Sequence record: HE978309 | Length of the DNA stretch: 64,000 nucleotides | Strand: one strand, 5' to 3' | DNA from: Enterobacteria phage GEC-3S | Shown: positions 19,917-20,339 of the stretch, piece after piece | Numbering within the stretch: position 1 is the stretch's first letter | Layout: every line of letters starts with the position of its first letter | The notes under the pieces: generated by a model | The model's input: the letters and a program-made list of their open reading frames with translations, nothing else | Told to the model about the DNA's origin: nothing | Databases searched by the model: none | Translations under genes and position numbers: made by a program

Positions 19917-20339
19917 TTATTGGTCTACCTTCAAAACAACCGCCGACATTTTACCCGCCAGTCGTTTTGGATTCTCTATAATCATTCGGCAGCATAGACC
20001 GTGATATGGCTTACCCTCTTCGATTAGATCTACTGTCATCCCGATCCACATGTTACCGTCAGTAATTTCTAATCGATTAGGTCGGTCTTCCATTTTCAGG
20101 AAGTCGAAGATCTCCGGCAAACGAGTTTCTATCTTATTGAATAGTTCCATTGTCTTATGTTCATCGATATGACGATCGGTTAGACGGTCGATCATATGCG
20201 GACTAAAGCGAATGAAAATATACTCACCATAACCATCATTCAAGCACTTTTCTTTGATCTTCGCATTGGTTTTGCGCATTTCGGTTTCGAAGAATCTACG
20301 CAGCTTACTACGGCGAACATGTACGTTAATTGTTTCCAT
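19917..20339 (-). CDS. regB: RegB site-specific endoribonuclease (cleaves GGAG)
   Basis: METINVHVRRSKLRRFFE...RLEITDGNMW...CRMIIENPKRL matches my recollection of T4 RegB; start taken at the internal ATG. Confidence 0.8.
   Translation of the reverse strand: METINVHVRRSKLRRFFETEMRKTNAKIKEKCLNDGYGEYIFIRFSPHMIDRLTDRHIDEHKTMELFNKIETRLPEIFDFLKMEDRPNRLEITDGNMWIGMTVDLIEEGKPYHGLCCRMIIENPKRLAGKMSAVVLKVDQ

Follow-up and report, generated by a model that had tools for sequence, protein, structure and literature searches.

RegB, an endoribonuclease that works with the host ribosomal protein S1, cuts at the G/A of GGA, its sites lying mostly in the ribosome-binding sites of early mRNAs; only a subset of T4 early mRNAs is sensitive to it (PMC1702504, PMC3014915). 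Which early messages it would reach in a relative of T4 is the question raised by a 64,000-nucleotide stretch of Enterobacteria phage GEC-3S (sequence record HE978309; referred to as the window), in which regB (20339 to 19917, minus strand) lies in a block of early genes that carry two recurrent kinds of leader. A first-pass annotation had started from the cutting of GGAG by RegB in Shine-Dalgarno sites of early messages, which accords with T4 biology (PMC1702504, PMC3014915), and had proposed that early genes fall into RegB-sensitive and RegB-resistant sets according to leader class, one class containing GGAG (class 1) and the other lacking it (class 2). Both classes proved to be real, and they do differ in GGAG, class 2 having GGAU and thus the GGA core triplet of RegB. 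The real contrast, as read from the sequence, is between first genes driven by a PeSL, mostly orphans, which have a RegB/S1-like site, and genes without such a site that are internal or conserved, PeSL being the published name of a mobile element of these phages that combines a strong early promoter with a terminator stem-loop.

By nucleotide identity, the window is a segment of a Krischvirus genome (an RB49/Phi1-like, T4-type coliphage), 97–99% identical to many records. Positions 19000–22000 share 99.3% identity with coliphage Phi1 and 98.8% with RB49, and longer stretches share 94–98% with about 57 Krischvirus genomes. Transfer of the Phi1 annotation by tblastn yielded 112 window genes, with nearly all alignments beginning at residue 1. 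A minus-strand early-gene block, a hyperplastic region, extends from position 1 to about 30500, where the late virion genes begin (3, 2, 4, 53 and 5 through 23).

GGAG leaders and PeSL cassettes

Class 1 is represented by the 16-mer AAGGAGAATCAAAATG, which is present three times exactly and 14 times with up to three mismatches, compared with 1.4 expected copies; none of 100 shuffled sequences reached 14. Its core GGAGAATCAAA occurs nine times in the window; each copy is on the minus strand and immediately precedes a start codon. Of the matches of the two classes taken together, a single one is not on the minus strand; in both classes the core copies end at the start codon.

Leaders of the form GGAGAAUCAAA precede ORF053 (895–905, −35 box from 964), ORF070 (11328–11338, −35 box from 11398), ORF078 (13626–13636, −35 box from 13681), ORF080 (14783–14793, −35 box from 14851), ORF084 (16036–16046, −35 box from 16093), ORF116 (26730–26740, −35 box from 26787), ORF117 (26984–26994, −35 box from 27056), ORF124 (28540–28550, −35 box from 28599) and ORF125 (28981–28991, −35 box from 29046), and the variant GGAGUAUCAAA precedes ORF113 (26024–26034, −35 box from 26094), all on the minus strand. 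Inspection of 120 nucleotides of upstream sequence revealed a near-consensus sigma-70 promoter for 11 of 11 class-1 leaders, consisting of TTGACA, a spacer of 16–18 nucleotides and a TATAAT-like box, with at least 10 of 12 positions matching in every case and 28–46 nucleotides between the end of the −10 box and the ATG. In most copies, GC-rich inverted arms (GGGG...CCCC in many of them) lie between or over the two boxes, or else these are closely preceded by a hairpin with a T-run; these stem-loops were judged by eye for most copies, and the terminator scan covered the regB unit. The class-1 genes that were scanned (10 of the 11) are small, encoding 50–124 amino acids, and all belong to PHROG families of unknown function.

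The resulting cassette thus reads sigma-70 promoter, GC stem-loop, A/C-rich 5' untranslated region, GGAGAAUCAAA, ATG and then usually an orphan gene. PeSLs of Phi1 and RB49, each a strong early promoter with a terminator stem-loop, mediate modular shuffling (Arbiol et al. 2010, PMC2839356). They are recombination substrates whose 3' end is formed by the Shine-Dalgarno sequence and start codon of an orphan gene (PMC2839356), and their T4 counterparts are analogues rather than homologues according to the same authors (PMC2839356). The window cassettes share with the published descriptions (PMC2839356; Comeau et al. 2014, PMC4122927) the AT-rich upstream region, the sigma-70 promoter and the GC stem-loop, as well as the Shine-Dalgarno sequence and ATG at the 3' end, the location in the hyperplastic region and the orphan genes downstream. 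On these features we identify the class-1 leaders as the 3' ends of published PeSL cassettes. The present description departs from the published accounts in bringing in RegB and GGAG, neither of which is mentioned in PMC2839356 or PMC4122927.

GGAU leaders and gene junctions

Class 2 ((U)GAGGAUUAUAUUAUG; leader form GAGGAUUAUAUU) lacks GGAG and combines GGAU with a non-consensus tail. Two exact copies of the 17-mer GAGAGGATTATATTATG are present, and 13 copies with up to three mismatches, compared with 0.24 expected; again, none of 100 shuffles reached the observed count. A looser core, AGG[A/T/C]T[T/A]ATA[T/C][T/A]ATG, has 11 copies, all before start codons and on the minus strand. A PeSL promoter stands ahead of three of these, the leaders of ORF057 (AGGATTATATTATG, 4563–4576), frd.2/goF (5796–5809) and ORF068 (10657–10670). 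The other eight are internal junctions, namely ORF059 (6419–6432, where the upstream TGA ends 15 nucleotides before the ATG), ORF064 (9530–9543) and ORF077 (13327–13340), in both of which the upstream TGA overlaps the Shine-Dalgarno sequence, ORF073 (12228–12241), tk.4 (18855–18868) and ORF109 (25086–25099), together with the class-2-like leaders of gene 1, which encodes deoxynucleoside monophosphate (dNMP) kinase (30504–30517), and of the late gene 2 (32406–32419).

For seven of these eight junctions, the upstream stop codon ends 11–22 nucleotides before the ATG, often overlapping the Shine-Dalgarno sequence (UGAGGAUU...). Genome-wide in Phi1, class 2 is also found ahead of the conserved genes rIIA, cd, gene 1 and gene 40. 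By this arrangement, class 2 is mainly a tight junction between adjacent genes in one transcript, conserved metabolic genes included. The idea that class 2 conceals a late promoter was rejected by inspection, with TTATATTA mismatching the T4 late promoter TATAAATA. As a separate observation, class 2 has the UAUAUU-AUG motif in common with leaders whose Shine-Dalgarno sequences are of other types (43, frd, rpbA, 55.2, ORF239 and ORF262).

The start regions of class 2 invite a reading with two shut-off routes, in which class 1 would be cut by RegB, and class 2, through its AU-rich ...UAUAUUAUG start region, would be bound by the repressor RegA. In T4, RegA binds AU-rich sites that lack structure and overlap the AUG, as in rIIB AAAAUUAUGUAC and gene 44 AAAUUAUGAUU (PMC3014915). 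Class-2 start regions are likewise AU-rich and predicted to be unpaired, and end in AUUAUG like those of rIIB and gene 44; regA is encoded in Phi1; and among the genes concerned are rIIA, cd, gene 1 and gene 40, with UAUAUU-AUG also standing before 43, frd and rpbA. However, the resemblance is to operators that have no sharply defined consensus, and is weak for that reason. Class 2 moreover has no 5' poly(A) tract like that described at T4 sites, and the Phi1 leaders of 44, 45, 62 and regA do not belong to it. We regard this two-route reading as quite improbable.

Match to the RegB/S1 target

The target of RegB/S1 is an 11-nucleotide single-stranded sequence, GGAGRAYARAA, which in T4 takes the in vivo form GGAGAAUAAAA (Durand et al. 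2006, PMC1702504). The T4 tail has A at positions 6, 8, 10 and 11, a pyrimidine at position 7 and purines at positions 5 and 9, with C almost excluded (PMC1702504). GGA is strictly needed, while U at position 4 is accepted only with a strict A-rich tail (PMC1702504). Class 1 (GGAGAAUCAAA) matches GGAGRAYARAA at 10 of 11 positions, and its tail, AAUCAAA, at six of seven, the mismatch being C at position 8. For class 2 (GGAUUAUAUUA) the match is 7 of 11, and its tail, UAUAUUA, agrees at four of seven positions. Since class 2 combines GGAU with a poor tail, the T4 rules predict that it would be resistant; among T4 intergenic GGAU sites, 2 of 30 were cut and 28 of 30 were resistant (PMC1702504).

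Like the known targets, class 1 is found at the ribosome-binding sites of early messages, in a predicted unpaired state, and it forms an 11-nucleotide conserved block. The mean predicted unpaired probability is 0.575 for promoter-proximal GGAG leaders matching at least 9 of 11 positions, which are mostly class 1, compared with 0.38 for poorly matching GGAG leaders. In an alignment of 40 promoter-proximal leaders anchored on GGAG, positions 5–11 carry 0.7–1.4 bits and every flanking position at most 0.55 bits, and the length differences between the copies begin directly after position 11.

The reading that we prefer, and hold to be somewhat probable, is that PeSL leaders are cleaved by RegB/S1 and class 2 is spared. 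RegB/S1 would cut the PeSL leaders soon after infection, which would stop translation of the first gene; the cut transcript would then be 5'-phosphorylated by phage PseT, encoded in Phi1 along with RegA, and would decay faster through RNase E/G. Class-2 leaders and most others would escape direct cutting. In T4, RegB cuts speed the decay of early mRNAs via PseT phosphorylation and RNase E/G, so genes downstream of a class-1 leader would probably be affected too.

The mismatch at position 8 weighs against this reading, along with two T4 leaders, one resistant and one nearly so. C8 occupies one of the best conserved A positions of the T4 sites, so the RegB sensitivity of class 1 remains a prediction. 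The T4 gene 1 leader (A7, C8, C10) is almost resistant, and T4 denV reaches 9 of 11 by the same scoring yet is resistant, so the score expresses resemblance and is not a validated predictor of cleavage. Class 1 further departs from the known target sites in that its members did not evolve independently but are almost identical copies carried within a mobile cassette.

The same position could be read the opposite way, with C8 blocking the cut: PeSL leaders would have kept a strong GGAG Shine-Dalgarno sequence yet evolved to escape or weaken RegB/S1 cleavage, both classes would be largely resistant, and the targets would be confined to sites with A8 (regB, ORF240, ORF140 and rI.-1). C8 is present in 29 of the 40 promoter-proximal GGAG leaders, and the regB site has A8 and an exact T4-type tail; T4 sites show a strong bias for A at position 8, and one C8-containing substrate is resistant. 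That substrate, T4 gene 1, nevertheless carries two further mismatches, the consensus is degenerate, and sites from in vitro selection (SELEX) vary. The preference of RB49 RegB, about 43% identical to its T4 counterpart, may differ, and C8 could equally be inherited by descent. We consider evolved escape through C8 improbable.

Distribution among genes and genomes

The tabulation of GGAG leaders called for by the first-pass annotation was carried out for the window and for Phi1, and showed enrichment at promoter-proximal early genes in both. GGAG leaders matching at least 9 of 11 target positions were found in 13/19 promoter-proximal early genes, 4/63 other early genes and 0/30 late genes of the window (Fisher p=1e-7); the corresponding fractions for the whole Phi1 genome (276 genes) were 32/58, 10/160 and 2/58 (p=3e-14). 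Any GGAG at all was present in the leaders of 2 of the 30 window late genes. All exact copies of GGAGAATCAAA in Phi1 (23 of 23) are in leaders on the early strand. An annotation-free pipeline detected such leaders at 1/19 promoters of RB43, a T4-like phage of the same host, compared with 33/65 in Phi1 (p=3e-4), and a tblastn search of RB43 returned no RegB homologue (E>1). The TTGACA/TATAAT filter applied to call promoters is a strict one from which the early promoters of T4 diverge, so T4 would not have given a clean comparison.

The partition proposed in the first-pass annotation survives in part. The better match of class 1 to the target supports it, but the two classes together account for only 22 of about 112 window genes, about a quarter of the early genes, and most leaders are in neither. 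Nor does leader class act as a code in its own right: it follows position in the transcription unit, with 11/11 class-1 leaders after a PeSL and 8/11 class-2 leaders internal.

Several features of these distributions also weigh against cleavage of the PeSL leaders, and they bear on an alternative in which the leader classes have no connection with RegB. The spread of repeats together with selection for translation could account for both classes: PeSLs would be homogenised by recombination with one strong ribosome-binding site, class 2 would be a favoured coupling junction, and RegB would act mainly on its own message and on a few perfect sites with A-rich tails. PeSLs, with their terminal Shine-Dalgarno sequence and ATG, are known to serve as substrates of recombination (PMC2839356). 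The class-1 copies are paralogous, recombining repeats, so the enrichment tests count non-independent events, and the RB43 contrast comes from one genome with 19 promoters. Across eight Krischvirus genomes, the 11-mer is conserved no more than the rest of the 5' untranslated region, with 0.055 and 0.062 minimum changes per column, respectively; the value for the whole 5' untranslated region is about 0.06, compared with 0.15 for codon position 3 and 0.26 for the promoter spacer. The substitutions within the 11-mer were U7C, A5G, G4U and A11G, a number too small to interpret. Since 11 nucleotides correspond to a 4-nucleotide Shine-Dalgarno sequence plus an optimal 7-nucleotide spacer, the length of the block is explicable by translation alone. 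The 15-mer AGGAGAATCAAAATG is found as a single copy in well over 100 unrelated IMG/VR contigs, a result that is uninformative on distribution but marks the motif as also a generic good ribosome-binding site, and C8 departs from the T4 sites. On the other side, class 1 agrees at 10 of 11 positions with the T4 in vivo target GGAGAAUAAAA even though the T4 counterparts of PeSLs are analogues; RB43, which has no detected RegB and shares the host, seldom has such leaders; and late genes are nearly devoid of GGAG. We rate repeat spread with translational selection as rather unlikely, and for RegB/S1 cleavage as the reason why the PeSL 3' end coincides with the target we see an about even chance, or slightly less.

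The regB gene and its transcription unit

The first-pass assignment of regB was confirmed. The coding sequence (20339 to 19917, minus strand; 140 amino acids, ATG start) matches Pfam REGB_T4 (PF10715) with E=1.1e-48 over profile positions 4–148 of 148, matches the T4 RegB structure 2HX6 with E=2.8e-26, and is 100% identical to RegB of Phi1 and of RB49. We assign the locus, from these matches, as regB of a T4-like coliphage of the RB49 type (Krischvirus); the protein being identical to the studied RB49 protein, the gene is not new. The gene order vs - vs.1 - regB is common to other Krischvirus records, and the label 'vs-regB intergenic region' is a product name that derives from T4.

An alignment of window RegB with seven homologues, T4 included, shows no substitution at the catalytic H48 or at R52; Durand et al. 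2006 (PMC1702504) used T4 R52L as their RegB-deficient control. The protein thus shares with T4 and RB49 RegB the full-length profile match and both of these residues, and its own ribosome-binding site has the common form GGA(G/U)+AAUAAAA. It differs from T4 RegB, to which it is about 43% identical, in being 13 amino acids shorter, without the insertion of T4 residues 87–99, in having GGAU in place of the GGAG Shine-Dalgarno sequence, and at the second catalytic histidine of T4, His68, which is Asn in window RegB. Across the Krischvirus-type clade the residues at this position are N,N,N,N,R,N,T, and H is found only in T4. The review of RegB describes RB49 regB as one of three divergent homologues and the sole one with a GGAU Shine-Dalgarno sequence, and reports that the regB Shine-Dalgarno sites tested were always cut in vivo, that of RB49 included (PMC3014915); since the RB49 site is cleaved in vivo, H68 is evidently dispensable in the RB49-type lineage. 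S1-stimulated cutting at the G/A of GGAG is published for T4 RegB, whereas what is reported for RB49 is the in vivo cleavage of its regB site. The codon for residue 68 is at 20137–20139 (minus strand), and the two histidines of a DRHIDEH segment about 7–11 residues upstream might substitute for H68.

The only strong promoter near regB is a PeSL promoter at 20702–20737 (minus strand), with TTGACA, an 18-nucleotide spacer and TAATAT (20737–20708), and a GGGGG...CCCCC stem-loop spanning the −10 box (20702–20721). It is followed by the leader of ORF095, CCCCCAUCGAAACAAAGGAGUAUUAAAAUG, class-1-like at 20680–20690 (GGAGUAUUAAA, minus strand; 9/11). The ORF095 homologue (20344–20679, minus strand; 111 amino acids, unknown function) is the first gene of the PeSL-ORF095-regB unit, and regB begins 4 nucleotides after it, with the ORF095 stop codon lying within the regB ribosome-binding site GGAUAAUAAAAUG. 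No promoter belonging to regB itself was detected in the promoter inspection, and regB appears to be co-transcribed with ORF095 from the PeSL promoter, as the second gene.

The ribosome-binding site of regB, GGAUAAUAAAA (20339–20349, minus strand), the last A of which is the A of the ATG, matches the RegB/S1 consensus at 10 of 11 positions and is identical to the T4 in vivo consensus GGAGAAUAAAA apart from U at position 4. Its combination of GGAU with a strict A-rich tail is exactly the setting in which Durand et al. saw GGAU to be cleavable, and the site is likely to be one of self-cleavage. The Shine-Dalgarno sequence is polymorphic within the genus at position 20346 (minus strand): GGAU is found in the window, Phi1, RB49, JSE and Makalu_003, whereas the GGAG form GGAGAAUAAAA of Brandy, W115 and SSG23 is the T4 consensus exactly. 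While GGAU and GGAG alternate, the tail AAUAAAA does not vary across the compared genomes. If the ORF095-regB transcript is cut at both of its ribosome-binding sites, RegB would limit its own synthesis. A further GGAG, GGAGAUCUUCG, lies inside the regB coding sequence (20114–20124, minus strand) with a tail far from the consensus; in T4, RegB cuts its own mRNA more weakly at three internal positions.

Other features of the window

Three further leaders resemble the target. That of ORF069 (GGAGGAUAACG, 11038–11048, minus strand; 9/11) is promoter-proximal and has GGAG, and that of rI.-1 (GGAGAAUAGAG, 16766–16776, minus strand; 10/11) has no detected promoter upstream. The third, GGAGGAUAAAU (43059–43069, plus strand; 10/11), is promoter-proximal and precedes ORF140 in the late-gene block. 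Here, a complete consensus PeSL-type promoter with this leader (43014–43073, plus strand) drives ORF140-ORF143, a DNA methyltransferase included, from within the late baseplate block between genes 8 and 9. In the counterpart of Phi1 ORF055, ATA (2060–2062, minus strand) takes the place of the Phi1 ATG start, with an intact PeSL promoter and a GAGAGGACAAC leader ahead of it; either the start may be gone or translation may begin elsewhere.

Two similar open reading frames (ORFs) of about 250 amino acids resemble HNH homing endonucleases, one at 7553–8308 (minus strand) between nrdC and dam, and the other at 35944–36696 (plus strand) between the late genes 5.1 and 5.4. Both match Pfam HNH_3, the 7553–8308 copy additionally AP2, and neither is present in Phi1.

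Two ORF-free stretches of the early strand, about 180–260 nucleotides long (27085–27262 and 16105–16364, both minus strand), each terminate in a strong hairpin with a T-run terminator directly before a PeSL promoter. Shuffled sequences fold less well than either stretch (z=-3.65 and z=-2.96, respectively), and we list the two as candidate small non-coding RNAs; an Rfam scan of the window, these stretches included, gave no matches. The Phi1 counterpart of 16105–16364 holds the annotated 43-amino-acid ORF084.1, which has no match in the window.

Implications for Krischvirus phages

RB49 RegB, the RegB/S1 target rule and PeSL cassettes have all been published, and the locus presents no new kind of system. 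The sole new element that we infer is the coincidence of the PeSL 3' end with the RegB/S1 target. If the PeSL leaders are true RegB sites, they would offer a natural panel of substrates, differing from the regB site mainly at position 8, for dissecting target choice by S1, and the invariant C8 would mean that RB49-type RegB/S1 tolerates or prefers a tail unlike that of T4. A broader proposal, which we put forward tentatively and at somewhat less than an even chance, is that the PeSL is a mobile expression module with three functions, its strong early promoter and its terminator being joined by a ribosome-binding site that RegB/S1 can cut; throughout the genus, RegB would switch off genes that had been shuffled in horizontally. 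An orphan gene shuffled behind a PeSL would then receive a brief immediate-early pulse of expression, ended by the phage's own RegB. Should the 20–30 near-identical PeSL leaders of each genome be RegB sites, the acquisition of genes in these phages would be coupled to a post-transcriptional switch-off timer.

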